64,000 nucleotides of DNA from Escherichia phage vB_EcoM_IME392: the sequence record MH719082.1; one strand, given 5' to 3'. The translations under genes were made by a program, and so were the position numbers. Shown here piece after piece: positions 1 to 36,410 of the stretch (position 1 is the first letter of the stretch; each line of letters starts with the position of its first letter). The notes beneath the pieces were generated by a model. That model was given only the letters and a program-made list of their open reading frames with translations. It ran no database searches and had not been told where the DNA came from.

Positions 1-931
1 TCACATCCAGAGTTGATCCTGGTTGGAACTCTCGACCAACATCTTCCATTACGTATTCTAGAATACTGTGATCGCTATTATAACGAGAAGCAGCATCTTC
101 AAGAGTAGCGATGTAATGCTGGAAGTAGGTACGGATCTTATACCAGGAATTAAGTGATCCGAGATCAATCGTAGTTACCGGAGCTTCATTAATGTCGTCA
201 ACATAAGCTCGGATATTACTTACCTGCTTCTTGATGTTCGACACTTCCGGATACCAGTGGAGATCATCCGTCATCACCACATAGTTGCCCATATCTACTT
301 TGAGCATAGTTGCGATGATTTCCTGGATGATCGTGAACTCCACCAGATTAACGTTAGTCAATCCCCAGATTAGATCATTACTACGGTTGAATACCGTGCA
401 GTCCAGACCACCATTACGGTACTTAAACGATAGAGCAATGTTGCAGATCATATCTGCGGTATTGATGCTGCCGATGCTGTTTACCAAACCTACATCAGAA
501 TCACGGCTGGGATCGTGAATAGTAGCCACGCACTTACGGTTACCCAGGTCAGAACGGAGGCGGTCTGTTACAGTCTGGAGTTGATCGTAGTTATACAGAC
601 GCTCACCGTAAGCACCACGCCAGGTAACCATATCATCGCTAAACATCTTAGCGCGAGGAACCATAATCGACATCCAGTTATCGATTGCATAGCCACCAGA
701 CAGTACCCACAATACTTCCCCCATAATTCCGAGGATATTGTCTTTACGTTCTGGATGAGCCATCCAACGATTAATCGGATTACTTAACTCAACTACAGCA
801 TGACCGATGGATACTACCGCCGAAGAGTTAACAGAAGTTCTGGACTTCTGCAACTCACCAGCCTTATCCATAGTATTGATGCTGTTAACCAGGATTTCAG
901 TATTACTGTTACCGCGAATTACCGAGATCAT
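1..931 (-). CDS. Deoxypyrimidine-monophosphate hydroxymethylase / thymidylate-synthase-family enzyme (partial; 3' end beyond window start)
   Basis: Own translation of the minus strand from ATG 931..929 (overlaps upstream TGA as ATGA). The frame stays open to position 1. ThyA-family motifs are present: ...DLGNRKCVATIHDP..., catalytic-Cys region DMICNIALSFKY (T4 gp42-like rather than ThyA PCH), and LDCTVFNRSNDLIWGL (RSxD motif). It is absent from the ORF track because it runs off the window. Confidence 0.6.
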   Translation of the reverse strand, partial: MISVIRGNSNTEILVNSINTMDKAGELQKSRTSVNSSAVVSIGHAVVELSNPINRWMAHPERKDNILGIMGEVLWVLSGGYAIDNWMSIMVPRAKMFSDDMVTWRGAYGERLYNYDQLQTVTDRLRSDLGNRKCVATIHDPSRDSDVGLVNSIGSINTADMICNIALSFKYRNGGLDCTVFNRSNDLIWGLTNVNLVEFTIIQEIIATMLKVDMGNYVVMTDDLHWYPEVSNIKKQVSNIRAYVDDINEAPVTTIDLGSLNSWYKIRTYFQHYIATLEDAASRYNSDHSILEYVMEDVGREFQPGSTLDV

Positions 932-1662
932 TTAGAGTCCTTACGCACTGAATCAATAGACTTAACTGCAGAGGACAGTAACTCCAGACGGGCCTCCTGA
1001 GGGATCATACCAGATGGCTCATTCAGGATCATAATACCTTTACCAGTATTAGTAAAACGAGCTGTGATTGATCCAGGATACACCGGATGATTCAGAGTTA
1101 CAGAATTACACAACGCAGCACCGAATCGCTCCTCGTAGGCACGCATAGTTACCTTAAGGAGAGTAGAACTGACTGCTACAGAGTATTCCGGATCAACAAC
1201 ACGGAAGTTATTGTCCTCAATACTCTTATCCTTCGTATTGAAGAACAGAGTCATGTTATAATAATCAATAGACTCGTTACTGAGACGTAATGCCTCATCA
1301 CGAGCTTCCTGGCTAGCAAACATACTGTTATGCAGCAGGAAGTAAACGTACGAATCGAATACCGCACGATCACTGACGATCAACTCGCCACGATTGTAGG
1401 CATCCTTGAACATCTGAGTTCGCTGACGAATAAGACGCAGCTGGAACTCTACCGCTTCCATAGGATCTTCCACAGCTAAGCGCAGAATATCCATATGGGA
1501 TGTTACTCCCAGAGGAAGATGGTCACGAGTCTGTACTGCACGGAAGGTACATTCGGTTGATTCTTCCCAGCCTTTAGCCAGAGTAGATTTACCGGTACCC
1601 TGCGCACCAGACATAATTACACTGTAGCCTGGGATACTATAGTCTCTCATTATTCTCTCCAA
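928..1662 (-). CDS. P-loop nucleotide/nucleoside kinase (dNK-like); candidate hydroxymethyl-nucleotide or hydroxymethyl-DNA kinase
   Basis: Walker A GAQGTGKST. ELIVSDRAVFDSYVYF resembles the ERS-xxSDRYxF motif of dCK/dGK-type deoxynucleoside kinases. Start/stop are coupled to the hydroxymethylase gene. Confidence 0.55.
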   Translation of the reverse strand: MERIMRDYSIPGYSVIMSGAQGTGKSTLAKGWEESTECTFRAVQTRDHLPLGVTSHMDILRLAVEDPMEAVEFQLRLIRQRTQMFKDAYNRGELIVSDRAVFDSYVYFLLHNSMFASQEARDEALRLSNESIDYYNMTLFFNTKDKSIEDNNFRVVDPEYSVAVSSTLLKVTMRAYEERFGAALCNSVTLNHPVYPGSITARFTNTGKGIMILNEPSGMIPQEARLELLSSAVKSIDSVRKDSK

Positions 1663-1681
1663 TTAAGAATCTTTCCCACAT

Positions 1682-1713
1682 TTTAACAGCCTTTCAAGAC
1701 CCTAAAAGAGCGG
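1682..1713 (-). promoter_or_regulatory. Conserved promoter-like element (copy 1) upstream of kinase gene
   Basis: Plus-strand TTTAACAGCCTTTCAAGACCCTAAAAGAGCGG. On the transcribed strand this reads ...GGCTGTTAAAATG, an extended -10-like TGnTAAAAT, about 20 nt before the RBS. Confidence 0.5.
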
Positions 1714-1739
1714 ACTAAAAAGGCTGGTGTAAATGTGAA

Positions 1740-2711
1740 CTAGCTAAACTTATACCAGCGAGGTCTCATACGGATCTCGTGATTCAGTTTATGTAGTTTC
1801 GAGAATTCGCAGAATGAGTTGGTGAACATCTGACGAGTATAGAACCGCTCATCCTCCGGCATGAAGTGGAACCATTTCTCCGGCTCCCATGCATACCCGA
1901 AATGAGCACATATCTCTTTGATGTTCTGATACCACCATTCCACGAACATCTGGTAGCCGCAAGGAGGGTTCTGGTCATTAAGCATGTACCATACCCCATC
2001 CTGCGTCCCGGGTCCACATACGATAGCATCGTTATCTGTGTACGCAGTCTCTTTAGAGTAGGACATAGTTGCCCAGCATTGATATGCCATGAACGGACCT
2101 AATCCAGATACCTGTAACAGATGCTCGATGGCCTCGGTAGCGAACGGAGACTTCCATGCCAGTAAGATAGGATCACTGTAGGTCTTCACCAGATAGGCTC
2201 TGGCAGCTACACTGTACTTAATATCCTCTGGACATACTTCATTAGCCATCTTAACTGCTGTGCTAAGGAAGTAGGCATTTGATTGCTGTGGAGCAGTGAA
2301 CGGAGGACCATCCTCATAACGACGTAGCTCTTCACGACCCATGTTATGTATGTCGTCATAGCTCATCTCATAAAGAGGAAGGACTCTGCGGAAGCGATCC
2401 ATATATGAATCACCACGGTTTATCATCTGGAAGAGTACCACGTTAAGCGCCTTACTCTCCCAGCTTAGGGAATCGTTCTCCAGAATGTTCTTGATAGCCC
2501 ATACTGTTTCACGATCGTGCTTACGGAACACGTTAGTGAATTTAAACTTACTAATCCACTTATGTTCTGTCCACGGAGGAGGTAGCTTAAGTATCTCCTT
2601 CTTATAATAAACCTCAGTCCGCTCGCGGTTATACTCCACATACTCACGTAGCTCCTCGGGATTTATCATCCCGAGTAACCCGTCGAAGTGCAAACCTAAC
2701 GGTTTAGACAT
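1740..2711 (-). CDS. Hypothetical protein of the DNA-modification module (323 aa, Trp/Tyr-rich)
   Basis: ORF with an upstream promoter-like element and an RBS. Its position lies between the kinase and the BGT-like gene. No motif is recognised by eye. Confidence 0.45.
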   Translation of the reverse strand: MSKPLGLHFDGLLGMINPEELREYVEYNRERTEVYYKKEILKLPPPWTEHKWISKFKFTNVFRKHDRETVWAIKNILENDSLSWESKALNVVLFQMINRGDSYMDRFRRVLPLYEMSYDDIHNMGREELRRYEDGPPFTAPQQSNAYFLSTAVKMANEVCPEDIKYSVAARAYLVKTYSDPILLAWKSPFATEAIEHLLQVSGLGPFMAYQCWATMSYSKETAYTDNDAIVCGPGTQDGVWYMLNDQNPPCGYQMFVEWWYQNIKEICAHFGYAWEPEKWFHFMPEDERFYTRQMFTNSFCEFSKLHKLNHEIRMRPRWYKFS

Positions 2712-3790
2712 TAAAGAATACCTTCTTTGGTAAAGTAGTCTATTACTTCATCCTGAAGTTCTTGTGCGTAATCCTTGCGCAGATATAGATTCTCATACTG
2801 ATGTTTCAGCAGAGCATCACGATCTTTCAGTTTCTCTGCAATCTCCGCATTACTGGAGACGATCAGAGGAGCCAGTAGCTCTTCGGGGACGCCGCTCCGG
2901 ATTATTGTTCCAGCAGCATCTTTATCCACCAGCATCAGAGTACCAGAGCTCAGGTATTCGTAATAACGGTTAGGTGGGCTGGTATAGAACGAATTACTGG
3001 AGTTCCAGTCTTCGATAAGCAGTACCGCTGCATATTTAGCCACTTCATCCAGCATCTCTGACAGCTTAAACTTAGGCAGCCAGTTAATCGGAGCAGCAGG
3101 TCCCAGCCACTTACGTTCTTTAGGATCCAGCTCTTCCCAGTTTTCCTGCTCGTAGCCGTCAAATCCTGCAAGACCACCAGTATGTTTAGCGATGGACATC
3201 TGAGCTTTGTAGCTCGGCACCGACATAAACAGTTCCAGACCATCTTGCTGGGAGAAGTACTGAGTGAACTTATGGAAGCGGCCTTCACGAGCAGCACCGT
3301 AATACAGCAGGCTATTGTCCGGCTTATCTGACGATCCATAGCGAGGCTTACGACCAGGAACGTAGGTAAGACGGTTCCAGTTAATGTGATGATAGTTCTC
3401 TTCGCTAGGAGAATACTGATTACCCCAGGAAGTACGTTCAAATGCTGCTACAACTTTAAATACAGTAGCTGCGGTGATGTGTCTCCACTGCGGACCCTGG
3501 ATACGCATCTTAGACGAGTAATCCTGTCCAATCCAGTAGAACTTAGCTCCGACATCTGCCTGGTCTACCCAGAACTTATACATCTCGTCGCGGAACTTAC
3601 AGAAGGTAGGAACACCATTGATGGCGATAATCACGTCATATTTAGTGCCATCTTCCATAGCCTTAACGAACTTAGGAGTATCGTCCAACAGGTCAGCTTG
3701 AAGTCCGTAGGCTAACCAGGAAGCCAGAGTATTACTGGCAATGATGGATTTATCGCTGCATGGCGAAAAGTTAGTTACTGCAATCTTCAT
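2711..3790 (-). CDS. DNA beta-glucosyltransferase-like glycosyltransferase (T4 BGT-like, GT-B)
   Basis: N-term MKIAVTNF resembles T4 beta-gt MKIAIINMG. LLYYGAAREGRFHK matches T4 BGT DVIYGGSFRSGQRE. AVLLIEDWNSSNSFYTSPPNRYYEYLSSGTLMLVD matches BGT ALIIGDKNYNDNFITLRVWETMASDAVMLID. Length is 359 aa, against 351 aa for T4 BGT. RBS GGAGAAATTAAACATG. Confidence 0.6.
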   Translation of the reverse strand: MKIAVTNFSPCSDKSIIASNTLASWLAYGLQADLLDDTPKFVKAMEDGTKYDVIIAINGVPTFCKFRDEMYKFWVDQADVGAKFYWIGQDYSSKMRIQGPQWRHITAATVFKVVAAFERTSWGNQYSPSEENYHHINWNRLTYVPGRKPRYGSSDKPDNSLLYYGAAREGRFHKFTQYFSQQDGLELFMSVPSYKAQMSIAKHTGGLAGFDGYEQENWEELDPKERKWLGPAAPINWLPKFKLSEMLDEVAKYAAVLLIEDWNSSNSFYTSPPNRYYEYLSSGTLMLVDKDAAGTIIRSGVPEELLAPLIVSSNAEIAEKLKDRDALLKHQYENLYLRKDYAQELQDEVIDYFTKEGIL

Positions 3791-3815
3791 GTTTAATTTC
3801 TCCGTAGGCTGTCAC

Positions 3816-3848
3816 AATTTAACAGCCTTTTAGCTCATCAAAGAAGCG
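3816..3848 (-). promoter_or_regulatory. Conserved promoter-like element (copy 2) upstream of BGT-like gene
   Basis: CAATTTAACAGCCTTTTAGCTCATCAAAGAAGCG. Overlaps the 3' end of the GT2 gene. Confidence 0.5.
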
Positions 3849-4872
3849 AGTTAGCTGATGCCCAGCTCAGCCAGTTATCGTTGAGATCGGTCAGGTAGGA
3901 GTAATCCTTATTCAGACCGAATACAGTACGGTTAGTTCCGTCGAACTTCATTATACCAGCGCCAGGAGCTCTGATGATTGCATCTTCCGTAGCCAGACAA
4001 TATTCTTTCAAGTATTCCTGGATGTTGGGACGAATACGACGGAAGGAACTATCTGCCGAGTCATAGTGGAACATATCTGCGCAGTGCCACTGTACGTAGG
4101 ATTTATCCGGACGGCTGAGTAGTTCATTACGGGTAACCATATCTTTAGGAGAATATCCCAGCTTAGCTACAGTGACTTCGTGAATACCTCCACCATTAGA
4201 CGAAGTATCCATCAGCCAGTTTTCGTCCCAGTAGAACGAAGTACCAGTACCAGTTACCTGTCCAACCTTCCAGCCCATCGCCATACCTTTAAACAACAGG
4301 TAGCAATCTTCTCCTACGGTCAACTGTTGGAAGGTTATATCGAACAGCCAGAACATCTTCTCACTGGTCTTGACCATGATACCGAGGTCAGTGGCCGGAG
4401 CAGTGTTATTATGTGACTGACGATCGCATAGTTCAACAATCTTGTAGTTACGATTCTTGAAGCTACGGACGAACGCCATCTCAAACTCAGATCCCTCGAA
4501 GTCTATAACGGAACGGTCCAGATGGAAAATATTATCTGCGAACCAGACATCATCATCCACGAAGTAGCAGATGTCTGGACACCAGTTCTGATCCTCCATT
4601 AAAATCCATGCCTTATCAAGAGCATGAGCTCGGATTCTTCCGATTACCGGATTATCGTACTTAGGACGATGCCAGAAATTAAACTGCTCGTCCCCACCGA
4701 ACTGCTCTTCCAGAACTGCCTTATCTTCTTCGGAGGCATCCTGCATAAAGTAGAAGAAACGATACTCGATAGAGTCGTCAGTCTTCTTAGCATCTTTGAA
4801 CGACTGAATCTGACGGAGTACCGACTTCATACGATGATAGGTTGGGATGATAAAAGCCACTTTGGTAGTCAT
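3838..4872 (-). CDS. Family-2 glycosyltransferase (GT-A fold)
   Basis: N-terminal VAFIIPTYHR (GT2 IIPTYN-type motif) and DXD motif YFVDDDVWF. Confidence 0.65.
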   Translation of the reverse strand: MTTKVAFIIPTYHRMKSVLRQIQSFKDAKKTDDSIEYRFFYFMQDASEEDKAVLEEQFGGDEQFNFWHRPKYDNPVIGRIRAHALDKAWILMEDQNWCPDICYFVDDDVWFADNIFHLDRSVIDFEGSEFEMAFVRSFKNRNYKIVELCDRQSHNNTAPATDLGIMVKTSEKMFWLFDITFQQLTVGEDCYLLFKGMAMGWKVGQVTGTGTSFYWDENWLMDTSSNGGGIHEVTVAKLGYSPKDMVTRNELLSRPDKSYVQWHCADMFHYDSADSSFRRIRPNIQEYLKEYCLATEDAIIRAPGAGIMKFDGTNRTVFGLNKDYSYLTDLNDNWLSWASANSLL

Positions 4873-4878
4873 ATTTAT

Positions 4879-5490
4879 TTATCCAATTTGACGAACTAAG
4901 CGAAACCCTTCGGCGTACGGCCACTGGGCAGAATATCCACGTAAGGTGGCTAGAGCTAAGATACTCTGGGTATCTCGGTCTGACTTAATCTGGGAGTCGA
5001 ATCGTCCCATAGCCTGGCACTTACACTCAATATCGTCCTTATTCAGACGCTCGAAGTAATTAGGTTCCATCTGACCGAACTGGGTCAGGGACTCGGCATA
5101 CTCATATTCCAGGATAAGCCAGTTATACGCTCGGAGAGCTACACGAGCAGCATGATTAACTAGTTGATGGTCCTGGTGTAGGCTACTGAACGGAATATAG
5201 ACTACATCCGGCCTGATTTTAGCAACATAGTCCGCAATATCCTTAGCCAATTGCGGAATATCCTTCTGAGTCATACCATCGCCTGTGGAGGCATCGTTAC
5301 GCTCCAGGCAATGTACTTCTTTGATATTCGGATAGACACCGAATGCTGCTTCGGCTTCACCACGACGGGTCTCGTCCGGAGCAGTTACTTCGAGGATGAA
5401 AAATTGGTCGTCGCGGAATTTGCTCATAATACCTCCGCAACCCAGAATCTCATCATCGTGATGTGGGCTGATAATCAATCGTGACTTCAT
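4879..5490 (-). CDS. PIG-L/LmbE-family de-N-acetylase (GlcNAc deacetylase-like)
   Basis: Signature SPHHDDEILGCGG near the N-terminus and the second zinc-ligand motif HQDHQ. The 203-aa size is typical of MshB/BshB/LmbE proteins. Confidence 0.75.
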   Translation of the reverse strand: MKSRLIISPHHDDEILGCGGIMSKFRDDQFFILEVTAPDETRRGEAEAAFGVYPNIKEVHCLERNDASTGDGMTQKDIPQLAKDIADYVAKIRPDVVYIPFSSLHQDHQLVNHAARVALRAYNWLILEYEYAESLTQFGQMEPNYFERLNKDDIECKCQAMGRFDSQIKSDRDTQSILALATLRGYSAQWPYAEGFRLVRQIG

Positions 5491-5496
5491 TATTAA

Positions 5497-5532
5497 TCCT
5501 CGCTACACAAAAATGGGGTTAGGCCGTAGAGA
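5497..5532 (-). terminator. Hairpin + T-run (minus strand) between BCCT and PIG-L genes
   Basis: Minus strand: GGGGTTAGG-TCTCTACGG-CCTAACCCC followed by ATTTTTGTG. Confidence 0.5.
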
Positions 5533-5553
5533 CCTAACCCCGTACGCCTCTGA

Positions 5554-5588
5554 CACCTTAACAGCCTTTTAGGTCATCAAACAGGAGG
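5554..5588 (-). promoter_or_regulatory. Conserved promoter-like element (copy 3) upstream of PIG-L gene
   Basis: CACCTTAACAGCCTTTTAGGTCATCAAACAGGAGG. A hairpin/terminator follows at 5497..5532. Confidence 0.45.
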
Positions 5589-6959
5589 AGTTTCCTTAGC
5601 CAAGAATACTTTAGGTACAAAGATCTTGAGGAACCCGAATAGAATACACAATACCCCAATCAGTACCGGAACAGCCGATACAGCTACCAGAGTCTTCGTT
5701 ACAGTTACTACGTCACCACCTGCCCAGTTAAGTGCAGCAGCAACTACACCCATGCTTACAATCCAGAATACACGAGTTCTAGGAGCGGTCATGGACTCTA
5801 CCGTAATACCTGCTGAGTCATGACCTGTAATAAAGAACAGAATCACAGACACGAGGGTAATTACTGAGAATATCCATCCGCCTGGGAAATTAGCCAGAAG
5901 CTGGAAGATATCCTGAGCACCATGTTGCAAACCGGCTACACCGAATACGGTAAACCATACGTTACTGATAATGGTAGGGAACAGTACACATCCCAGGATC
6001 AGTTCGCGAATAGTACGGCCGTAAGAGATACGTGCCACAAACGCTCCGACGAATAATGCCCAACCTACCCAGGCTGCATAGTAAGCATAAGGCCAGCTAG
6101 CCAGCCATTGCTTCTCTTCAGCAGTACTGCCAATGTTTACCGACATAGGAATAATCTGGAGCAGATAGCTGCCAGAATAGGTGATGGTCTTCCAGAGGTA
6201 TTCAAAGAATGTACCACTTACAGCAACGAATGCCATAATAGATAGAGCTACGATTACATTATATCTGGATAACCACTTAACCCCACGATCGACACCAGTT
6301 ACGGCACTAAGTACAGTGCCCAGAGTCAGGAGTGCGATAATGGTGTAAGGACCAACATCCACACCAAGGAACTCTTTAAATCCAGAACTGATCGGGCCTA
6401 CTGCGTAGACGAACGACAGGGTTAAGCCTATGATGGTCGAGAAGAGTAAGCTTATCGTATTAAGGTTATTCAGAGTTCGGGACTTGAATAACTGATTAAG
6501 CGGACGGTCTTCACCACGTACATGCAGTAAGTACCCGAATGCCACCCCTACGACTGCATACACAGCCCATGCATTAAGTCCCCAGTCAAAGAAGGTAGTT
6601 ACCATATTCTGACGTTCGGACATACCCTCCTGATGATGGTACATAGGTTCGAGTACGCCATAATAAATCATGGATACACCCATACCGGTACTAAACATCA
6701 TAGAGTAATAGGTAAAGCGATTGTATTTCGGAGTACCTTTACCCAGCTTAATGTTACCATGTTTGCTGAATACAAAGAATGCCAGGAACGCCAGGAAGAT
6801 CAGCGAAGACCAGGTAAATATGAATCCATACTGAGATATAAATACAGACTTACTCCAGTCCATTACAGCACCAAACTGGGTGGGAGCAAACATAATGGCG
6901 AGTACAATACCCACCGTTACCAGCACCGTCCCCCAGGTAACTACCTTTGAATCGGACAT
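5577..6959 (-). CDS. BCCT-family (betaine/carnitine/choline) secondary transporter
   Basis: 460-aa polytopic membrane protein. N-terminal FSKHGNIKLG motif and the BCCT signature WPYAYYAAWVGWALFVGAFVARISYGRTIREL (cf. W..FYWAWW.SW.PFVG.FIARIS.GRTIRE). Confidence 0.85.
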   Translation of the reverse strand: MSDSKVVTWGTVLVTVGIVLAIMFAPTQFGAVMDWSKSVFISQYGFIFTWSSLIFLAFLAFFVFSKHGNIKLGKGTPKYNRFTYYSMMFSTGMGVSMIYYGVLEPMYHHQEGMSERQNMVTTFFDWGLNAWAVYAVVGVAFGYLLHVRGEDRPLNQLFKSRTLNNLNTISLLFSTIIGLTLSFVYAVGPISSGFKEFLGVDVGPYTIIALLTLGTVLSAVTGVDRGVKWLSRYNVIVALSIMAFVAVSGTFFEYLWKTITYSGSYLLQIIPMSVNIGSTAEEKQWLASWPYAYYAAWVGWALFVGAFVARISYGRTIRELILGCVLFPTIISNVWFTVFGVAGLQHGAQDIFQLLANFPGGWIFSVITLVSVILFFITGHDSAGITVESMTAPRTRVFWIVSMGVVAAALNWAGGDVVTVTKTLVAVSAVPVLIGVLCILFGFLKIFVPKVFLAKETPPV

Positions 6960-6962
6960 TGA

Positions 6963-7871
6963 TTATTCCTCAATTACGCCCTTAGCGATTAACTGGCGAC
7001 GGACGTATGCGTAGCCAGCAGGTGAAGTAGCGAGGACGATGTCCGCACTACGGAAGTTGGTTTCGATATAGAAGCACTCCTGAAGATCCCGAGTACAGAA
7101 GAGCTCAGTACTCATCATACCCTCGCGTACGTTACATGCATCTGCAACGAATTGCGCAACATCTTCGAAGTGGTCTACCGAATGACTATAGCCGAATCCA
7201 CGGGCATCAGTAGATATAACGTAGTTAGGGCAGTACGGAGTGAAGTCAGTATCTTCGTAGGATTTACCCTGGATAGTGAAGATATCTGCATAGTCCTTGA
7301 ACCCGCTCGGGCTAACCAGAAGATCCCAGGCAACTACCATACCATCGATAACATCTGCCTGAAGTACCAGAGAGGTAGTATATTCGTCCGGTGCCTTATC
7401 GCAGACCAAAATTGGGGAGTCTCCCAGAAGGTCCGACATAGTGCCCGCACCCTTGCCCCCGTGAACACGATCACGGCGTACAAACGCCTCCTGAGGCCTC
7501 TGGTACAGTCTGAACGACGGTACAATCAGCGAATCAGGCAGAGTTCCCAGGTTAGCTTCGGAGCGAAGGCAGGATAATTGGTCAGCTTTAGACCACGTAC
7601 TTTCGATAGCGTGCAGATCGTTACCGATTTTGGTATAGATATAGCTTTCCGGATTACGGCACTTACCCTGATTCAACTCTTCGATAACCGAGTCGAAATA
7701 AGGAAGTCGTACTGATCCCTCACGAGGAGCAGTTAACGCTACTGAGCCATGCTTGGTATGATCCTGATCAACTACCATAACCTGGTCCAGACTTACACCC
7801 ATCTTAAGAATCTGGGATAATGTAGCTGCCGTGTGATTAGTGCAGCCAATCATCAAATCTAACTTCTTCAT
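6963..7871 (-). CDS. Hypothetical protein (302 aa) of the modification module
   Basis: ORF tightly packed between the transporter and the methyltransferase, with a promoter-like element upstream. No confident family assignment. Confidence 0.45.
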   Translation of the reverse strand: MKKLDLMIGCTNHTAATLSQILKMGVSLDQVMVVDQDHTKHGSVALTAPREGSVRLPYFDSVIEELNQGKCRNPESYIYTKIGNDLHAIESTWSKADQLSCLRSEANLGTLPDSLIVPSFRLYQRPQEAFVRRDRVHGGKGAGTMSDLLGDSPILVCDKAPDEYTTSLVLQADVIDGMVVAWDLLVSPSGFKDYADIFTIQGKSYEDTDFTPYCPNYVISTDARGFGYSHSVDHFEDVAQFVADACNVREGMMSTELFCTRDLQECFYIETNFRSADIVLATSPAGYAYVRRQLIAKGVIEE

Positions 7872-7895
7872 TTTAATTCCTCAGTTAACTTGTAC

Positions 7896-7928
7896 AACCT
7901 AACAGCCTTTCGAACCCTAAAAAGAGCG
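7896..7928 (-). promoter_or_regulatory. Conserved promoter-like element (copy 4) upstream of gene 6963..7871
   Basis: ACCTAACAGCCTTTCGAACCCTAAAAAGAGCG. Confidence 0.5.
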
Positions 7929-7972
7929 AAATAATAGATATCTAGCCATCTCGTAAGATGGCTATGTATATA

Positions 7973-8713
7973 TTACTTTAATTCGGAGAGATCTGCGATC
8001 TTCACCTTAGCTGATACATCCCAGATTCCTTCACCAAATCCGGTATCTTCCAGCAGCTTAGGCACTTCACGTTTCTGTACCTTAGATTGCTCGTACTTAA
8101 GCAGAGGAATATTACCGGTCTTATCTGATTGATCCCACAGATAAGTAGCAGCACCGATGTTATCGAACAGTGCGAGATCTGGATTAAACTGGGTAAGGAG
8201 TCGGCAGTCCCAGTGAGACTTATGTTCCTCGAAAGGATTAGTTTCCGTGCCACGCTGACGATACTCATAGTTAGGAGTACCGATCACGATTTTAGCCTTA
8301 GACTGGAATAGCTTAGACAACACCATAAGCCCGTCTTCGCTATCCAGATGCTCCAACACATCCAGCCAGATAATAGTGCCGAATTTATCCAGCTCTTCAA
8401 TAGGAAGATCTTTCAACAGTTCAACGATATTGCAGATATAGATATCGCTATATACATTTACACTGCCTTTGATGTAGTCTTCGCAGATGTCCAGACCTGT
8501 AATCTGACCATCGAATCCTGCGTTACGGAGAGCAAGACCAATTTCTCCACGACCTAATCCCATATCCAGGATTGGCCCGGAGATAATTTCGTTACGGAGC
8601 ATCCATTGGAGAAAGTGCTTCTGGACTAAGTAGGAGGTGCCTCCGTTGCCCAGTGAAGCCTTCGTGACCTTAGTACCAGGAACGAAATTACACTCGATAT
8701 GTTTACCAAACAT
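7973..8713 (-). CDS. SAM-dependent methyltransferase (class I Rossmann)
   Basis: Motif I-like ILDMGLGRGEIGLAL (cf. VLDLGCGTG), and an acidic residue after beta-2 in GLDICED. Confidence 0.55.
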   Translation of the reverse strand: MFGKHIECNFVPGTKVTKASLGNGGTSYLVQKHFLQWMLRNEIISGPILDMGLGRGEIGLALRNAGFDGQITGLDICEDYIKGSVNVYSDIYICNIVELLKDLPIEELDKFGTIIWLDVLEHLDSEDGLMVLSKLFQSKAKIVIGTPNYEYRQRGTETNPFEEHKSHWDCRLLTQFNPDLALFDNIGAATYLWDQSDKTGNIPLLKYEQSKVQKREVPKLLEDTGFGEGIWDVSAKVKIADLSELK

Positions 8714-8817: not shown

Positions 8818-10065
8818 TTACAGTTTACCGATCATCTTCTGAATCATCTCGTCAGAAGTCTGATTCTCTACCTTAGCACGACGTTCTTGCAGATTAGCAA
8901 TGCGGTCGTCGTGATCTTTCTTACGTAGCATGCTGATGCTACGGCTAAGGCAGGAATTCAACACTTCCTGGGTAATACCGAGAGCTTTGATGATCTGAGC
9001 ATCAGACTTATCCTGCATAACCAGCTCGCCCACTTTAGGAAGAATCTGGTAAATCTCGATGTCTCGGTCAATCTTCTTAAGAGACTCAGTCTTATGGACG
9101 GAGAATGCCTGATTGTAGAGAGCCATCGTGACTGCAATCCAGTCGCGAATACCCATCGTCACCAGTTGACCATTGTAGGCTACCTGGATACGATGCGAGC
9201 GGTTCATGTAAGCAATATTCATGCATGCTTCGTGAACCTCGTCCATATCGATGGTCCTGATACGGGGAGCCTTCATTACTCGGATATAGATCTTATCCTT
9301 GGACATGTTCTTGACCAGGATCTTACCTTCTGATAACCACTTATTCAGGAACCCGATGCGAGGAGTAATTACCTCACCAGACCCGATGATGTCGATGGTG
9401 TCGGTATTGACGCGAGTTACCTTAAGGGTAAGGCCTAAGCGACCTACACCAGTTTCCCATAAGGACTTAAGGTCTGACTTACTCGGCACGATATCATACC
9501 CGTACTGAGCCTTAAGCAGATTATAATCGTCATGCTTGTAGGCTTCCAGCAGACTCTCGTAAGTGAATGCTGGGATACGGGACTGAATACCAGTAGCCCA
9601 TGAGAAGGTACCATACATCAGAGCATACGGAATAGGCACTGGAAGGTATGCGTATTCCATCTTCTCTTCACCTTCAACCTGCGGAACATAGTCCGCTAGA
9701 CCGAAGTAGTATTCTGCACGATCTTCGTTCAGGCCAACCTTCGTGTAACGAGGAGCAGCACCAGGAACTTCTTCCAGCAACTTAACGCCGAAAGATCCCT
9801 GACCATCAATAGCACCGATGCGAGCAAGACGGGAAATAGTCCCATCGATAGACTGGTCACCGAATGGGTGTAGCGACTGAGTTTCTGAGATAGCGCTCAG
9901 AGTCCCCACCAGCTTCCCACGAGCAATGCTATTCAGAGCCATGTAGATACGGCGCTGGGCAGGAATCAGGCCATCGATACCGGGAACTACACGATGAAGA
10001 GCACAATACACACTGTAGTCAGTGTAGTTCTTGGTGATGAATTCAGAAATCTTTACCTGTTCCAT
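8818..10065 (-). CDS. Type II DNA topoisomerase medium subunit (T4 gp52-like, GyrA-type cleavage domain)
   Basis: 415 aa, immediately downstream of the large subunit. The size and position match the T4 gene 39/52 arrangement. Confidence 0.65.
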   Translation of the reverse strand: MEQVKISEFITKNYTDYSVYCALHRVVPGIDGLIPAQRRIYMALNSIARGKLVGTLSAISETQSLHPFGDQSIDGTISRLARIGAIDGQGSFGVKLLEEVPGAAPRYTKVGLNEDRAEYYFGLADYVPQVEGEEKMEYAYLPVPIPYALMYGTFSWATGIQSRIPAFTYESLLEAYKHDDYNLLKAQYGYDIVPSKSDLKSLWETGVGRLGLTLKVTRVNTDTIDIIGSGEVITPRIGFLNKWLSEGKILVKNMSKDKIYIRVMKAPRIRTIDMDEVHEACMNIAYMNRSHRIQVAYNGQLVTMGIRDWIAVTMALYNQAFSVHKTESLKKIDRDIEIYQILPKVGELVMQDKSDAQIIKALGITQEVLNSCLSRSISMLRKKDHDDRIANLQERRAKVENQTSDEMIQKMIGKL

Positions 10066-10067
10066 AA

Positions 10068-12053
10068 TTACTCCTTAAACAGACCGTAGTCTTCTAACAG
10101 TTGGCGACGAGCACGAGATGAGTACAGCAACTTACGAGCGGCATCGAGATGCTCTTCATTATCATCGTAGGTTACCTGGATAAGACGGCGAGATTTCGAG
10201 TTAATGATGAATTGCTCAGTTTCTTCTTCGGTATATGACCCGAGTCCCTTACGACGTTCAACATAGCACTTATCGAAGTCGATCTTATCCTTCTCGTCAG
10301 CGTAGTAGAACTCGGTCTTCTTACCATTCTTAACTACATAGAACGGAGCTTCGAGTTTATACAGACGACCATCTTTAACCAGCTCTGGAGCATGGATAAG
10401 GAAGATTGAGCTAATGAGGTTACTGATGTGCTGACCATCAACATCAAGGTCGGTCATAATGATGATCTTACCGTAACGAGCCTTATCTATGTCAAACATC
10501 TGGCCCATACCACACCCGATAGTATTGATGATCGCCAGCAGCTCTGGGTTATTCACGAATTCCATGATATCCATGGAAGCCGAGTTACGCATCTTACCGC
10601 GAAGAGGAAGCACCGACTGATACTCATTACGCAACTTGATGATATTACCAGAAGCAGACGGACCCTCTGTGATGAACAGCTCACGAAGATCCCAGCGGTC
10701 GGACGGAGATTCGTAGATCTTCGCCATGTCACCATCCATAGCGGCCTTACGGTGATCATCACCCATCACCAGCTTAGACTTAATGAAGTCCATGTTGGAG
10801 AGTTTATTCAGGCTAGCTTTGTAAGCCAGGATCTTGGCAATCAGAGCATCAAAGAATTGCTTATTCTTCTCGTATACCAGGCTGAAGTAGAATGTGAGCT
10901 GACTCAGGCATTCTTTCTCGTAGAAGAAGTACTCGCCATAATAGTCGTAATCGTTGATTTGCTCATCATTCAGCATCAACTTATTCTTAGCCATGATTTC
11001 CCAGTCGCTCCAGGACATACCGAGGCCAGTTAACTTCTCCTTAGTCTGCGAGGAGAATGCTGTACGATAGCTGGAGAAGACGTTAGTGAACACGATCAAT
11101 CCCAGCTTAGCATCACCAACAGTGATAGCAGAGTTAACTTTATTCAGCATACCGCCGAGCGCTCTCGTGACCAGCTTCTCATGCAGACCACCATGCGGGT
11201 TATTGATCAAGTTGATCATGTCTACATGGGAGTAGGACATATTCTTATCAGAGTAGCCCAACTCACCAGAGAAGGTCAGACGATCGTTGAACGAGAACTC
11301 GTACTTGACTGTAGTATCGAGGAACAGCTTCTCATTCTCTGCAACATCACGACGAAAATCCCAGGTAGCCAGAGCTTCACCATTAACGGTGATAGTTGCA
11401 TCACGACCAATCAGGGAGATCTTCAGAGGAACAGTATCCACATCAGACCAGATGCTGCGGTACAGAGTCGCATCAGGCACCATGAAGACTGCTGTGGAGA
11501 AGTCGGTAGCCTTTAACGTCTCGAGCACTTCGTCTGGGAAGCCATCGTCGTGAAGATCATTCAGATCATTGATCACTCCATCGATTTCCATAACACCACG
11601 GCGGAATCCGAGGACATAGAACTGACCTGGCTCCATAGGGATGTGTGCCTTATCTCCCTGCATTACGCGACGGATTACAACGAATCGCTCGGACACTGCG
11701 TTAACAGCGGAGCTACCTACGCCATGGGTACCAGAGGTAATTTCACGGTTATCGCCCAGCTTAGAGCCAGCATGCAGATCTGTTACAGTAGAGAACAGAA
11801 TAGATTTAGACGGATCTTCCGGATCAGCGTAGATAGGAATACCACGTCCGTTATCGGTAACCAACTTGTAGGCTTCACGGTTAATGATCTGCACTAGGTT
11901 AGCATAACCATTAAGCAGCTCGTCCTCCGCATTATTGATTATTTCCTGGAGAGGATGAGTGTAGTTAATCGGGTCACCGAGATACATGGATACGTTCTGA
12001 CGAACGTTATCAGGGTAACGCAATCTTGTGATTTCAATAGCATGTTCTGACAT
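10068..12053 (-). CDS. Type II DNA topoisomerase large subunit (T4 gp39-like, GyrB-type ATPase + TOPRIM)
   Basis: GHKL ATPase motifs EIINNAEDE, DNGRGIP and GTHGVG. TOPRIM IIMTDLDVDGQHI. Confidence 0.85.
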   Translation of the reverse strand: MSEHAIEITRLRYPDNVRQNVSMYLGDPINYTHPLQEIINNAEDELLNGYANLVQIINREAYKLVTDNGRGIPIYADPEDPSKSILFSTVTDLHAGSKLGDNREITSGTHGVGSSAVNAVSERFVVIRRVMQGDKAHIPMEPGQFYVLGFRRGVMEIDGVINDLNDLHDDGFPDEVLETLKATDFSTAVFMVPDATLYRSIWSDVDTVPLKISLIGRDATITVNGEALATWDFRRDVAENEKLFLDTTVKYEFSFNDRLTFSGELGYSDKNMSYSHVDMINLINNPHGGLHEKLVTRALGGMLNKVNSAITVGDAKLGLIVFTNVFSSYRTAFSSQTKEKLTGLGMSWSDWEIMAKNKLMLNDEQINDYDYYGEYFFYEKECLSQLTFYFSLVYEKNKQFFDALIAKILAYKASLNKLSNMDFIKSKLVMGDDHRKAAMDGDMAKIYESPSDRWDLRELFITEGPSASGNIIKLRNEYQSVLPLRGKMRNSASMDIMEFVNNPELLAIINTIGCGMGQMFDIDKARYGKIIIMTDLDVDGQHISNLISSIFLIHAPELVKDGRLYKLEAPFYVVKNGKKTEFYYADEKDKIDFDKCYVERRKGLGSYTEEETEQFIINSKSRRLIQVTYDDNEEHLDAARKLLYSSRARRQLLEDYGLFKE

Positions 12054-12085
12054 AATTTCTCCGGTCAGGTTTAAATAAGCTCACA

Positions 12086-12120
12086 CAGTTTAACAGCCTT
12101 TGGAGGCCTCAAAGGAGCGG
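12086..12120 (-). promoter_or_regulatory. Conserved promoter-like element (copy 6) upstream of topoisomerase large subunit
   Basis: CAGTTTAACAGCCTTTGGAGGCCTCAAAGGAGCGG. Confidence 0.5.
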
Positions 12121-12752
12121 TTCACGAACAGGACTAAATCCTCTACTCTGGACTTATCTACCCACTCTGTTCTTCCTGGTAAGGACCTATTAGACTCGGA
12201 GAAGAAAGATAATCTCACTTTTGATTCTAAATCCACTCCCTCTTCTTTAGGCATCTCGATTAAGATTAGCGGGGTCATACCGATGCCTAATCCATCTAAT
12301 CTTCTTTCTATATTTGAAGTAATCCCATATTTAGCATTTCCAGATTGGTCCAATACGATATAAAAGACCACCTTACCTTCTGGAATGGTAGATATCGCTA
12401 GGTTCTTAATCACAGAGTTAGCGTATTCAGGATTCAACCATCGTTTATGATTTGAAGAGGATATCACTTTAGACATCTTCTTCTGGTAGTTCTCATCTTC
12501 CCACATTTTAATGTTGCGATTAGTCATGGAAACAGACCTAGCCCTGGTGGCGCATTCTGATCTTCCACATGTAGGACGATAGCCCTTAATCACGGATTTA
12601 AAGGAGCAGGGTTTTCCACATGAACATATTTTTACAGGAAAGAATTTTAAGTAATATTCATGCGGAGTTAAGCCATGAGATTTGGCATGGGAGGGAAATG
12701 CCTGGCCTCTTACTTCGGCAGAGCATATTCTACATTTATGATTCATAATCAT
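12090..12752 (-). CDS. Zn-finger / GIY-YIG-like endonuclease (homing-endonuclease-like)
   Basis: Several CxxC pairs at the N-terminus. The C-terminal VVFYIVLDQSGNAKYGITSNIERR fits GIY-(x9-11)-YIG...R. It sits directly upstream of the topoisomerase genes, a known homing-endonuclease hotspot in T4-like phages. Confidence 0.4.
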   Translation of the reverse strand: MIMNHKCRICSAEVRGQAFPSHAKSHGLTPHEYYLKFFPVKICSCGKPCSFKSVIKGYRPTCGRSECATRARSVSMTNRNIKMWEDENYQKKMSKVISSSNHKRWLNPEYANSVIKNLAISTIPEGKVVFYIVLDQSGNAKYGITSNIERRLDGLGIGMTPLILIEMPKEEGVDLESKVRLSFFSESNRSLPGRTEWVDKSRVEDLVLFVNRSFEASKGC

Positions 12753-12990
12753 ACCACTTAGTTAATTCAAGGAAGTCATCCATCGCGGAATTAAAGAAGG
12801 AGTCTATCTCCTTAGCCATTTCCTTGGCGAAGCGACCAGATTCGGTCGACATCACTACCTTAGCCTCGCCCATAGGGTGCTTGACCACTTCGTAGATTCC
12901 CAGATTTGGGTAATACACTATGCTGGATAGGAAGTTTACAGACTTAACCACCACAGTATTGAATTGAGTTACTTCCACCATCTTAATCAT
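12736..12990 (-). CDS. Hypothetical small protein
   Basis: 84-aa ORF in an operon-like array. No recognisable motifs. Confidence 0.35.
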   Translation of the reverse strand: MIKMVEVTQFNTVVVKSVNFLSSIVYYPNLGIYEVVKHPMGEAKVVMSTESGRFAKEMAKEIDSFFNSAMDDFLELTKWYDYES

Positions 12991-13301
12991 GCTTCACCTA
13001 CCATTTTCAGGAAGGTGTCTACCATAATCGGGTCGAAGCTATCGACATCGGCAGTATGCATCAGGGCGGAGAATAATGAGTTAGCCCAGTGCTCCGTAAC
13101 TCCGTCTTTACCTTCGAGAATTACGCAGTACTGATCTTTGGAAGGATGGTACTGAATCTTAGCAACATTGCGATTCGAGGTCAGGACCAAAATCTTGGTT
13201 CCCGAGATAGTGAAGATTCTAGACATATAATAATCCCAAATTAGAAGATCCGCAGCGGGAACGCCCCGCCACCCAAAAGAACGGGCTTTAGGAGGTCCCA
13301 T
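12987..13301 (-). CDS. Hypothetical small protein (true start may be internal)
   Basis: ORF follows a terminator hairpin. Start codon uncertain. Confidence 0.35.
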   Translation of the reverse strand: MGPPKARSFGWRGVPAADLLIWDYYMSRIFTISGTKILVLTSNRNVAKIQYHPSKDQYCVILEGKDGVTEHWANSLFSALMHTADVDSFDPIMVDTFLKMVGEA

Positions 13302-13342
13302 AAATCGTTTTATTTTTCATTATTTGAAAAATAAAATAATCT

Positions 13343-13368
13343 ACACAAAAATGGGGTCCGAAGACCCC
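13343..13368 (-). terminator. Rho-independent terminator after Mre11-Rad50 gene
   Basis: Minus strand: GGGGTC-UUCG-GACCCC followed by ATTTTTGTGTAG. Confidence 0.65.
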
Positions 13369-13373
13369 ATCAA

Positions 13374-16139: not shown

Positions 16140-16993
16140 GCCGACTCCAGTATCTTAGCCGTAACGGATCTGTTATATTTACCCAGTACACCATGGAAGT
16201 ACGGAGGGAATCTGAATCCTGGACAGAACTCTTCCAGAGTAGGTAGGATGCGCTGTTGCATCTGTACCTTAGACTCCTGTTCTTTAATGATGCTGTGGAC
16301 TTCTGTATCGGTTAGGATTCTGTCTAGACGCATCAGTTCCATATTAGAACGAATACGGAATTCAACCGATTGGCTTAAGCTACCATCTTTGTAGGCATTA
16401 ATCGCCTCCTTAACAGTGCTTAATCCAGTAGCCACTCCTGGAATGTTGTCGGAGCCGTCCCCGACGATGGCTTTGTAGATGAGATAATCCTTATGATCGT
16501 CCAGATCGTAGGTCTTCATTAACCAAGGAAGATCCACTAAACCATCGTCAGGATTTAAGACACAAGTATTCTCATTAATTGATAAGTACCAGTCACGGTC
16601 ACGAGAATGCAACATAACCGGACGTCCTGAATGAGCATAGTAGTAGCCTAAATCATCGGCTTCCACACCAGACACCTGGATACACTTAATACCCAATGCT
16701 GGGAAGATCTGCTCATGAAGTACATTCATAGCAGCCCACAATGCCTCAAAGCTCTCGTCATACTCACGATTAGCTTTATACTCCGGATTCTTATCTTTAG
16801 GCCTGTATCTCCACTTGCCTCGATCATATAGCATGATTAGCTCGGAGTTATATCCGTCTTCCTTAATCAACTTCGCTACACTACCAATAGTGGAGGAGAC
16901 CGTAGGACCTAAGTCCTGGGACTTACCGGCTGCGAACCAGTTACGAAGAGTCAGCCACTGACAATCGACTGGTATTAACGGGATGTCATTCAT
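16136..16993 (-). CDS. RNase H / 5'-3' flap endonuclease (T4 rnh / FEN family)
   Basis: Motifs YKANR and GVEADDLGYYY (cf. Pol I 5' nuclease GYEADD). Confidence 0.7.
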   Translation of the reverse strand: MNDIPLIPVDCQWLTLRNWFAAGKSQDLGPTVSSTIGSVAKLIKEDGYNSELIMLYDRGKWRYRPKDKNPEYKANREYDESFEALWAAMNVLHEQIFPALGIKCIQVSGVEADDLGYYYAHSGRPVMLHSRDRDWYLSINENTCVLNPDDGLVDLPWLMKTYDLDDHKDYLIYKAIVGDGSDNIPGVATGLSTVKEAINAYKDGSLSQSVEFRIRSNMELMRLDRILTDTEVHSIIKEQESKVQMQQRILPTLEEFCPGFRFPPYFHGVLGKYNRSVTAKILESA

Positions 16994-34982: not shown

Positions 34983-36410
34983 ATGACTAAGCAGAATATC
35001 GTGCTGTCTAACGTCGACGAGGCCTCCGCAGATGTAATGGCTAACGCCTACTTCGACAAATACAGCGAGCAAATGGATGCATACGCATCTAACTCCATCC
35101 TGGCGCGTGTTAACGAAAGCCTGTCTCCGTTCGAAATGATCGCAGTCGGCCAGACTCTGGACCAGTACCAGGGTTACCAGAAGTACGTCAACGAATCCAT
35201 GAGTGGCCTGGCATCTATGGGTGCTATTCCGGCAATCGCTCTGGACGTTATTACCGCATCTGTCGGTAACTCAATCCTGCCTCTGATCTGCTCTATCCAG
35301 CCGATCCCTGAAGAGCATGGTATTGTTTACTACCGTCAGATCAAAGCATCCCAGACCTCCGGCGGTTACAACGCAGGCGACGTGATCCGTGATCCGCTGT
35401 CTCGTGATAATCCTGGCGAAGGTACCCTGGGTGCCCAGCGTCGTCAGCAGGTAATCGGCACCGGTAACGGCACCGAAACTAACTTCGCTGCTACTCTGGA
35501 ACTGTATCCTGTTCGTCCGAACATGGTCTTCGTCAACATCCCTGGTGTTGGTAATGGTCAGGACGACGGTAACGGTAAGATCCTGGGCTTCGGCTTCGAT
35601 GGTACCATCAACTACAAAACTGGCGCGATCACTATCGCAGCTAAAGCAGCTGTTCCTAACACTGCTCAGGTTGCTGTTCGCTTCGACGTTGATGTTGATC
35701 TGCTGGATAACCTGGATAAAATCCAGGCTGGTCTGATCTCCAAAGATATCCGTGCGGAAATCTGGACCCTGGCTGCTGATATCGGCACCTTCGCTAACTT
35801 CGCCTTCCAGAATCGCTTCGGCCGTTCTGCAGAAGACGAAGTCGCATCCGACCTGTCCAACGAAATCACTAACGTCCTGAACGTTCGTGCTATCAAACAG
35901 ATCGCTGCGATGGCTATCGGAGAAACTATCTGGGATCAGACTCCTCCGGCTGGTGTTTCCTACGCTGAGCACAAACTGACTCTGGTTGATACCTTTGCTC
36001 GTGCTGAATCCGTGTTGCACAACAACGCTGGTGTAGGCTCTGTGAACCGTATCATCTGCGGTCGCTCTGCTGCTGCGGTATTCCGTGGTATGCCTGAGTT
36101 CACCCCAGCAGGTCAGTCTGTCGGTACTTCCGTATCTCTGTACGGCTTCTACGACGGCGTGCCGGTAATTCGTGCAACTGGTGTTATCGAAGATAACGCT
36201 GCGTATCTGATCTGCAACCCGGACGGTTACTTCAACTGCCCGCTGGCATACTCTCCGTTCATGCCGCTGATCGTTACCGATACCATCCAGAACCCGAACA
36301 ACCCGTTCCGTGGTACTAAAGCTGCTGGCGTTTGGGCGGGTATGACCCAGCTGAACCCGAACCTGGTAACCAAACTGACCTTCAAACTGGCTAACTTCTC
36401 TGGTAGCTAA
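34983..36410 (+). CDS. Major capsid protein (putative)
   Basis: 475 aa, follows the protease/scaffold. Strongly biased high-expression codon usage (ctg, ggt, cgt, aac) and a strong terminator directly downstream. Confidence 0.6.
   Translation: MTKQNIVLSNVDEASADVMANAYFDKYSEQMDAYASNSILARVNESLSPFEMIAVGQTLDQYQGYQKYVNESMSGLASMGAIPAIALDVITASVGNSILPLICSIQPIPEEHGIVYYRQIKASQTSGGYNAGDVIRDPLSRDNPGEGTLGAQRRQQVIGTGNGTETNFAATLELYPVRPNMVFVNIPGVGNGQDDGNGKILGFGFDGTINYKTGAITIAAKAAVPNTAQVAVRFDVDVDLLDNLDKIQAGLISKDIRAEIWTLAADIGTFANFAFQNRFGRSAEDEVASDLSNEITNVLNVRAIKQIAAMAIGETIWDQTPPAGVSYAEHKLTLVDTFARAESVLHNNAGVGSVNRIICGRSAAAVFRGMPEFTPAGQSVGTSVSLYGFYDGVPVIRATGVIEDNAAYLICNPDGYFNCPLAYSPFMPLIVTDTIQNPNNPFRGTKAAGVWAGMTQLNPNLVTKLTFKLANFSGS

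Follow-up and report, generated by a model that had tools for sequence, protein, structure and literature searches.

The genome of Escherichia phage vB_EcoM_IME392 (IME392; sequence record MH719082.1) carries, at the start of the 64,000-nucleotide (nt) stretch that we analyzed (hereafter, the window), a gene for an enzyme of the thymidylate synthase (ThyA) superfamily (gene A), which is joined to a gene for a small P-loop kinase (gene B). Such a pair raises the question of which modified nucleotide is made and at what stage: the original prediction, made from the DNA sequence, left it between hydroxymethylated dCTP or dUTP (T4 or SPO1 style) and phosphorylation of 5-hydroxymethyldeoxyuridine (5-hmdU) in DNA (ViI style). 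Our analysis points, with a probability of roughly 0.6, to a translationally coupled, pre-replicative pair that supplies 5-hydroxymethyl-dUTP (hm-dUTP), in which gene A is very probably a dUMP hydroxymethylase and the predicted role of gene B is most likely that of a thymidylate-kinase-like 5-hydroxymethyl-dUMP (hm-dUMP) kinase. The pair would be SPO1-style at the nucleotide level, with post-replicative elaboration by an adjacent gene cluster.

Every gene in the first ~29 kb of the window lies on the minus strand. Gene B (1650..928, minus strand; 240 amino acids (aa)) ends with the stop codon TGA at 930..928, which overlaps the start codon ATG of gene A (931..929) in the tetranucleotide ATGA (931..928, minus strand), as seen by direct reading of the sequence. 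This confirms the ATGA coupling that had been proposed earlier, but the kinase had been placed downstream; because both genes are on the minus strand, the kinase is upstream and the hydroxymethylase gene (931..<1, minus strand) is downstream. A Shine-Dalgarno sequence, AAGGA (942..938, minus strand), is located 6 nt upstream of the gene A start codon, and another, GGAGAG (1660..1655, minus strand), is located 4 nt upstream of ATG 1650. Since GGAGAG precedes ATG 1650 and the resulting length of 240 aa agrees with all homologues, we regarded this codon, not the TTG at 1662 of a mechanical list of open reading frames (ORFs), as the start of gene B. Gene A is represented by 310 codons and its 3' end lies beyond position 1. 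The orthologue in EP_H11 (WBU87640.1), a sister phage 93-96% identical to IME392, comprises 357 aa, of which the window holds the N-terminal 310 residues; thus, gene A is short of only ~47 C-terminal residues. EP_H11 shows 93% nucleotide identity over window positions 1-8000 and is collinear with positions 3-51957 after the ends of its linear record are joined. Judged from their homologues, which reach E values of 1e-50 for gene A and 1e-47 for gene B, both are real genes. Upstream of gene B lies gene C (1740..2711, minus strand), which encodes an aGPT-Pplase clade 1 protein (Pfam PF18723, HMUDK_hel; E 3e-35). A scan of positions 1-3000 gave no promoters above shuffled expectation and no convincing terminators between genes C, B, and A, and the three genes are presumably co-transcribed.

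Gene A matched the Pfam family Thymidylat_synt (PF00303; 46.6 bits against a cutoff of 24.3, E 3e-12) and PHROG 3676 (E 6e-71). Tblastn against 50,697 phage records yielded 606 matches. Next to EP_H11, the best were with ViI-like Ackermannviridae, in proteins called thymidylate synthases (38-42% identity, E ~1e-50), followed by SPO1-like Bacillus phages (SP82G, 33%, 4e-30) and then by M6/YuA-like Pseudomonas phages (M6 gp58, 33% identity, E 2e-26). These ViI-, SPO1-, and M6-type relatives are, according to published work, dUMP hydroxymethylases of phages with 5-hmdU or derivatives of it in their DNA (PMC5889632, PMC8989533). We aligned gene A in a set of nine phage sequences with T4 gp42, E. 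coli ThyA, and the core of MilA; the gp42 and ThyA sequences had been verified against the PDB entries 1B49 (246 of 246 aligned residues) and 1AOB (264 of 264), respectively. E72, Y108, C163, R183, D186, H225, and Y227, which make up the catalytic Cys, the Glu/Tyr/His-Tyr network, and the R-S-x-D motif for phosphate and folate, were invariant in this alignment. The DMICN and RSND motifs that had been noticed in the partial gene are indeed present, the former with Cys163 (codon 445..443, minus strand), which falls in the same column as ThyA Cys146 and gp42 Cys148, and the latter as NRSND with Arg183 and Asp186. The sequence around the catalytic Cys was D-x-(I/V/P)-C-N in every dUMP-hydroxymethylase-like sequence, while Cys was followed by Thr in gp42 and MilA and ThyA had P-C-H. 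Past the conserved Gly190, the phage clade has one extra residue and then an invariant Asn195 (9/9 dUMP-hydroxymethylase-like sequences; codon 349..347, minus strand in gene A), the predicted base-specifying residue. By its flanking residues this position corresponds to Asn177 of ThyA, and it is occupied by Asp in gp42 (Asp179) and MilA. Mutagenesis of the two enzymes (ThyA N177D and gp42 D179N) established that this residue sets the specificity for uracil versus cytosine.

In a neighbor-joining tree of the core region, gene A grouped with the sequences of Ab1-TPeters, two metagenomic relatives, RP13, Cba120, SP82G, and M6, with MilA, gp42, and ThyA outside this group. In phmmer comparisons at Z = 1e6, the verified gp42 sequence gave no match with gene A, and ThyA gave an E value of only 0.005. 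Because of its nearest relatives, this grouping, the gp42 and ThyA scores, the Cys context, and Asn195, we place gene A in the phage dUMP hydroxymethylase clade, with which it shares the ThyA-superfamily fold, the catalytic residues, 27-42% identity (SPO1 gp29/SP82G, ViI/Cba120 orf073, and M6 gp58), the D-x-(I/V/P)-C-N motif, the G-x4-N insertion, and a C-terminal extension of ~100 aa. It differs from these phage enzymes at two sites: Ile precedes the Cys where they have Pro or Val, and the arginine pair from the dimer partner reads R-K, not R-Q or R-R. The C-terminal extension cannot be aligned beyond the immediate clade. Gene A adds an ordinary member to a known family and has already been flagged as such in print, since AXY86077.1 (gene A) and WBU87640.1 were named as thymidylate synthase variants for 5hmdUMP (PMC12686479, Table 1).

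An enzyme of a different kind, either a T4-style dCMP hydroxymethylase or a plain thymidylate synthase, was also considered. The RSND motif and the lack of Pro before the Cys recall gp42, the best match among solved structures is the cytosine enzyme MilA (E 2.6e-13), and the EP_H11 orthologue is labeled 'thymidylate synthase' in GenBank. Gene A does share with gp42 and MilA the superfamily, the RS(N/A)ND motif, and the absence of P-C-H, and hydration instead of reduction of the methylene group, established for gp42 and MilA, would apply to gene A as well. In these two enzymes, Thr follows the Cys and Asp occupies the base position, whereas gene A has Asn at both positions; T4-style synthesis of hydroxymethyl-dCTP is therefore very unlikely, and the original description of gene A as gp42-like, in view of these two residues and of the failure of gp42 to match it, has to be given up. 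Its separation from ThyA held up: gene A has I-C-N in place of P-C-H, and the C-terminus that closes over the folate in ThyA is replaced in the EP_H11 orthologue by an unrelated, clade-specific extension. The original prediction had allowed that a P-C-H motif might turn up in the missing portion of the gene; this is impossible, because the Cys, the RSxD motif, and the base-specifying residue all lie within the window. The alignment with hydroxymethylase and ThyA sequences that it had called for placed gene A among the dUMP hydroxymethylases and outside ThyA. Furthermore, the aGPT-Pplase of the neighborhood and the dCTP deaminase and dUTPase of the sister genome point to a dUMP route (PMC12686479). 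Taken together, a dCMP hydroxymethylase or a thymidylate synthase is highly improbable.

The kinase is more unusual. Gene B belongs to a small, rare, and uncharacterised family and has never been annotated beyond 'hypothetical protein' (its product is identical to AXY86078.1; that of gene C is identical to AXY86079.1, with the same annotation). By tblastn, the family was detected in three phage records, those of EP_H11, of Acinetobacter phage Ab1-TPeters (38%), and of Ralstonia phage RP13 (35%). A word-indexed search of 5.8 billion proteins yielded five relatives, and an exhaustive HMMER profile scan of 1.84 billion representatives yielded 287 sequences at E <= 1e-3, including 27 below 1e-30. 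The sole Pfam match of gene B was AAA_28 (38.3 bits against a cutoff of 27, E 2e-9), with no match to Thymidylate_kin (PF02223), and it also matched PHROG 2107, 'thymidylate kinase' (E 1e-11). Among the sampled relatives, AAA_28 was matched by 87/87, the Pfam model dNK by 31/87, and cytidylate or thymidylate kinase models by a few; TIGR00041 was touched weakly by only three. In sequence searches of solved structures, gene B itself had no match and its family profile gave P-loop matches to AAA+ ATPases only. An AlphaFold (AF2) model of gene B built on six sequences (predicted local distance difference test score, pLDDT, 86.5) was then compared with known structures by Foldseek. Its matches in the PDB were deoxyadenosine kinases, Drosophila deoxynucleoside kinase (dNK), NDUFA10, and many thymidylate kinases (TMPKs), the dNK and TMPK matches having a probability of 1.0 and template modeling (TM) scores of ~0.5. 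The matches in BFVD were NadR-type, dNK, and dTMP kinases; no 5-hmdU DNA kinase was named among the top 50, many of which had no name at all.

We aligned the gene B family profile by hhalign with the sequence-verified TMPK of Staphylococcus aureus (S. aureus TMK) and Drosophila dNK, and 124 columns (probability 82%) and 123 columns, respectively, were aligned. On S. aureus TMK, T41-R42, D94-R95, and D99/Y103 of gene B correspond to T35-R36, D91-R92, and D95/Y100, and on Drosophila dNK, F69-Q70 and D94-R95 correspond to F80-Q81 and E104-R105; in those enzymes, the aligned residues bind the acceptor phosphate and the base. Together with K21 of the P-loop, R77, R150 of the lid, and R221, these are the key residues of gene B. 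The catalytic Glu that follows strand 2 in dNK is replaced by a TMPK-like T-R. Judged from the model, gene B has a dNK/TMPK fold, like S. aureus TMK (2CCJ), Drosophila dNK (1OT3), and the NadR-type AAA_28 proteins, and the order of motifs (P-loop, T-R, F-Q, D-R, D-S..Y, and lid Arg) is common to gene B, TMK, and dNK. The identity with TMK and dNK is 12-18%, and gene B lies under every curated family threshold except that of AAA_28; unlike the two enzymes, it lacks E-G before the P-loop and, in the model, adds a C-terminal three-stranded sheet and a helix (residues ~183-236). Thus, thymidylate kinase is the closest functional analogy suggested by sequence comparison, and membership in the TMPK family is not established by profile. 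The earlier claim that the kinase is dNK-like and not related to T4 gp1 was borne out: the E..SDR..F motif is present as ELIVSDRAVF (E89..S93-D94-R95..F98), the P-loop is GAQGTGKST in place of the G-x-K-R-S-G-K-D of gp1-type deoxynucleoside monophosphate (dNMP) kinases, and hhalign with the gp1-like proteins Cba120 orf072 and Ab1-TPeters CDS0059 gave probabilities of 0.2% and 19.8%, in addition to the dNK and TMPK matches by Foldseek.

We then compared gene B with true 5-hmdU DNA kinases (5-HMUDKs), because gene B might be a non-orthologous enzyme of this kind, which would phosphorylate the hydroxymethyl group of 5-hydroxymethyluracil (hmU) in phage DNA in the style of ViI and M6. The phosphate would then be the leaving group for gene C and the transferases, and the supply of hm-dUTP would fall to the host enzymes Tmk and Ndk. 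Pfam PF18748 (HMUDK_HMUD1) recognizes the characterised 5-HMUDKs, with E values of 8e-18 for M6 gp54 and 5e-113 for Cba120 orf074 (ViI gp67 type). It gave no match with gene B at E < 0.01; the 87 homologues matched 27 families, and PF18748 did not figure among the 25 of these that were listed. BLASTP and hhalign aligned 23-42 residues of gene B and the 5-HMUDKs around the P-loop (29-34 columns by hhalign), where the likeness ends. Past the P-loop, the 5-HMUDKs have FEG and RNGG, gene B has FQ, DR, and DS..Y, and neither has the motifs of the other; retention of these motifs, along with TR, is expected of a buried mononucleotide site. The charge is also opposite, since gene B is acidic (isoelectric point 5.7; family median 5.8; 5.3 for gp1-type dNMP kinases) and the two 5-HMUDKs have values of 8.7-8.9. 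A nucleotide kinase is favored because the homology to 5-HMUDKs is confined to the P-loop, the substrate-site motifs of TMPK are kept, and the protein is acidic. As an observation on the ViI-like system itself, Cba120 (positions 5333-8149) has a compact block of 5-hmdU DNA kinase, dUMP hydroxymethylase, gp1-like dNMP kinase, and dimeric dUTPase genes, in which the gp1-like kinase (GRKRSGKD) is annotated as hypothetical and the DNA kinase, like M6 gp54, is annotated as 'terminase small subunit'.

The gene neighborhood provides a second line of evidence. In six lineages, the homologue of gene B is directly followed on its 3' side by a dUMP-hydroxymethylase-type gene. With HD standing for the HD 5'-deoxynucleotidase gene, the order is C-B-A-HD in IME392/EP_H11, in L006, and in L007, B-A-HD in Ab1-TPeters and L010, dUTPase-B-A in L012, and GT8-C-GT-like-B-A (GT, glycosyltransferase) in L014, whose kinase shows ~25% identity. 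All of the neighboring hydroxymethylases have the C-N motif, and all but that of L012 match the G-x4-N pattern. The 4-nt overlap of genes B and A is kept in EP_H11, L006, and L007, and a gap of 1-11 nt is found in Ab1-TPeters, L010, L012, and L014. In RP13, the gene B homologue follows the HD nucleotidase gene, with gene A 8 kb and gene C 18 kb away. Across the six lineages, the constant partner of gene B is thus gene A, an enzyme acting on a mononucleotide, and not the aGPT-Pplase, which also favors a nucleotide kinase. In particular, Ab1-TPeters keeps gene B with no detectable gene C, ADDT (aGPT-Pplase clade 2), or PF18748 kinase, and we counted this, as well as the order in L012, for a nucleotide kinase.

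Several observations weigh on the other side and fit a DNA kinase. In the ViI-like phage Cba120, the true 5-HMUDK gene is located immediately 5' of the hydroxymethylase gene, and the gp1-like dNMP kinase and dUTPase genes are located 3' of it; gene B resembles that 5-HMUDK as a small P-loop kinase with the same position and coupling in a thymine-hypermodifying phage, and therefore position alone fits a DNA kinase equally well. Gene B also co-occurs with aGPT-Pplase clade 1, as the true 5-HMUDKs do, and adjoins it in four of the six lineages, with gene C directly upstream. Beside the gene B homologue, Ab1-TPeters has a gp1-like dNMP kinase, which mirrors the ViI arrangement, as well as a further P-loop protein (182 aa), so that gene B does not have to serve as the only dNMP kinase there. 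Moreover, kinases of the E. coli host already convert hm-dUMP to hm-dUTP (PMC13458397), so that a dedicated kinase is not strictly required. Published work on this polymerase group noted an aGPT-Pplase but stated that a 5-HMUDK 'could not be detected' (bioRxiv 10.1101/2025.03.26.645540). Gene B is the only small Walker-A kinase among all ORFs of EP_H11 and the window, and no PF18748-like, ADDT-like, or gp1-like protein was detected among them. ADDT is the enzyme that consumes phosphorylated hmU in DNA; the lack of a detectable ADDT thus speaks against a DNA kinase, whose product, 5-phosphomethyldeoxyuridine (5-PmdU), would have no user, and fits direct glycosylation of hmU over a route through a phosphorylated intermediate. 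Since true DNA kinases cluster with gene A as well, the context by itself does not decide the matter. On the whole, we consider a DNA kinase unlikely and the nucleotide kinase the better-favored assignment. Of the three styles originally put forward, the T4 style has accordingly been set aside, and the choice between nucleotide kinase and ViI-style DNA kinase leans to the former.

A further possibility is that gene B raises the dNTP supply, either by salvage of deoxynucleosides or as a general dNMP kinase, without any special tie to the hydroxymethylated nucleotide, and that it adjoins gene A merely through the clustering of nucleotide-metabolism genes. The top structural matches include deoxyadenosine, multisubstrate deoxynucleoside, and NadR-type riboside kinases, and the proportion of homologues that match the Pfam model dNK, given above, agrees with such a role. 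Furthermore, distant relatives of gene B in the metagenomic phage contigs L019, L020, and L021 (E 1e-14 to 2e-8) lie in replication modules, beside genes for FEN exonuclease and/or SbcD-like Metallophos proteins; the full FEN-kinase-SbcD-SbcC order is found in L021 only, and there is no ThyA-family gene near any of the three kinases. These three suggest a separate subfamily, possibly with a DNA-related role, so that DNA-directed activity somewhere in the wider family is conceivable, which is one more point in disfavor of a mononucleotide substrate. The persistence of the kinase-hydroxymethylase adjacency in six lineages down to ~25% identity, often with overlapping stop and start codons, speaks against mere clustering, as does the TMPK-like T-R at the place of the dNK catalytic Glu; a nucleoside kinase beside an HD 5'-nucleotidase would also constitute a futile cycle. 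A salvage or general kinase is thus quite unlikely, even less probable than a DNA kinase.

From the family and catalytic residues of gene A, the fold and conserved motifs of gene B, and the conserved gene order, we infer what the two enzymes act on, as well as all subsequent steps, as follows. Cys163 of gene A would attack C6 of dUMP, methylene-tetrahydrofolate would donate the methylene group, and the resulting exocyclic methylene would be hydrated, not reduced, to give hm-dUMP. Gene B would phosphorylate hm-dUMP to 5-hydroxymethyl-dUDP, which the nucleoside-diphosphate kinase of the host would convert to the triphosphate, and the SP15-like family-A DNA polymerase of the phage would incorporate hm-dUTP in place of dTTP. 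The HD 5'-deoxynucleotidase, dCTP deaminase, and dUTPase would feed dUMP into the pathway and presumably remove dTMP. EP_H11 encodes these three enzymes just past the matching edge of the window; none of the EP_H11-type dUTPase, dCTP deaminase, HD nucleotidase, and DNA polymerase was found within the 64-kb window. After replication, hmU in DNA may be elaborated by the aGPT-Pplase clade 1 protein, two glycosyltransferase-like proteins, a PIG-L deacetylase, and others.

The candidates for this elaboration are clustered upstream of genes B and A. Gene C belongs to the same Pfam family (PF18723) as M6 gp55; PF18723-type matches occur in 371 phage records, mostly ViI-like, and the family marks phages in which 5-hmdU undergoes modification after replication. 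We found no functional data on aGPT-Pplase clade 1 in the literature, and the protein was dispensable in the M6 and ViI reconstitutions (PMC8989533). Pfam currently names clade 1 'HMUDK_hel, 5-hmdU DNA kinase helical domain' and clade 2 'ADDT'. Because the clade 1 protein stands alone without a P-loop in M6, RP13, and IME392, this name is no evidence of kinase activity. The idea, taken from the name, that genes B and C form a split 5-HMUDK acting as an obligate pair was rejected: M6 gp55 is separate from the M6 kinase gp54, genes B and C are far apart in RP13, and Ab1-TPeters retains gene B with gene C undetectable.

Next to gene C, the region 2711-5490 (minus strand) contains genes for a 359-aa protein, a 344-aa protein, and a PIG-L/LmbE deacetylase. 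The 359-aa protein (2711..3790, minus strand; 100% identical to that of IME392) looks glycosyltransferase-like, since it and its L006 and L014 counterparts gave consistent sub-threshold matches to Glyco_trans_1_2 (GT-B); its AF2 model, built on a two-sequence alignment, had a pLDDT of 38.7. We also considered whether this protein is a divergent ADDT/aGPT-Pplase clade 2 enzyme on account of weak phmmer matches to M6 gp51 (E 0.5 and 0.024); this was not supported, given the matches to Glyco_trans_1_2. The 344-aa protein had no Pfam match, shows by eye a GT-A-like N-terminus (IIPTYHR...DDD), and has two paralogues in L006. The deacetylase was identified with an E value of 7e-14. This combination of glycosyltransferase-like genes and PIG-L suggests, from the sequences, transfer of GlcNAc to hmU and subsequent de-N-acetylation.

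Past the deacetylase gene lie genes for a BCCT transporter, an orphan, and a methyltransferase. The BCCT (betaine/carnitine/choline) transporter gene (5577-6959, minus strand; Pfam E 1e-92; BetT in EP_H11) is full-length and stands inside the presumed DNA-modification cluster, between the deacetylase gene and the orphan gene of 302 aa; it is unusual phage cargo and could serve as an importer of a precursor for base modification. Directly upstream of the cluster are genes for topoisomerase II/gyrase-like subunits A (415 aa; DNA_topoisoIV, E 6e-19) and B (661 aa) at 8818-12053 (minus strand), an arrangement kept in L006 and Ab1-TPeters. Near the topoisomerase and replication genes, Ab1-TPeters (11704-16832 and 35525-36663) shows synteny with IME392, but two GT-B glycosyltransferase genes and a 516-aa orphan replace the aGPT-Pplase/PIG-L/BCCT cluster there. 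The modification module appears to have been swapped between relatives while the kinase-hydroxymethylase-HD core was kept.

An SP15/YerA41-like DNA polymerase defines the phage group to which IME392 belongs; bulky modifications of thymine occur in members of this group and prevent sequencing and restriction of their DNA. As a uracil-specific hydroxymethylase, gene A would fix hmU, and not hydroxymethylcytosine (hmC), as the entry point of the pathway. The gene B family tracks dUMP hydroxymethylase genes and is relevant to a gap that has been stated in the literature, the undetected 5-HMUDK of this group. The substrate of gene B would tell whether the modification has a phosphorylated intermediate in DNA, like that of ViI and M6, or whether hmU is glycosylated directly, in the manner of T4 on hmC, and the likeliest answer for gene B is the conventional one. 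A more far-reaching proposal, to which we give only a small chance, is that gene B represents a second, independently evolved class of kinase acting on the 5-hydroxymethyl group of hmU, either in DNA or in the mononucleotide, and derived from a thymidylate-kinase-like ancestor. If this were true, gene B would be the 'missing' kinase of SP15/RP13/YerA41-like hypermodifying phages and, together with aGPT-Pplase clade 1 and the glycosyltransferases, would build a phosphate-containing sugar modification on thymine.

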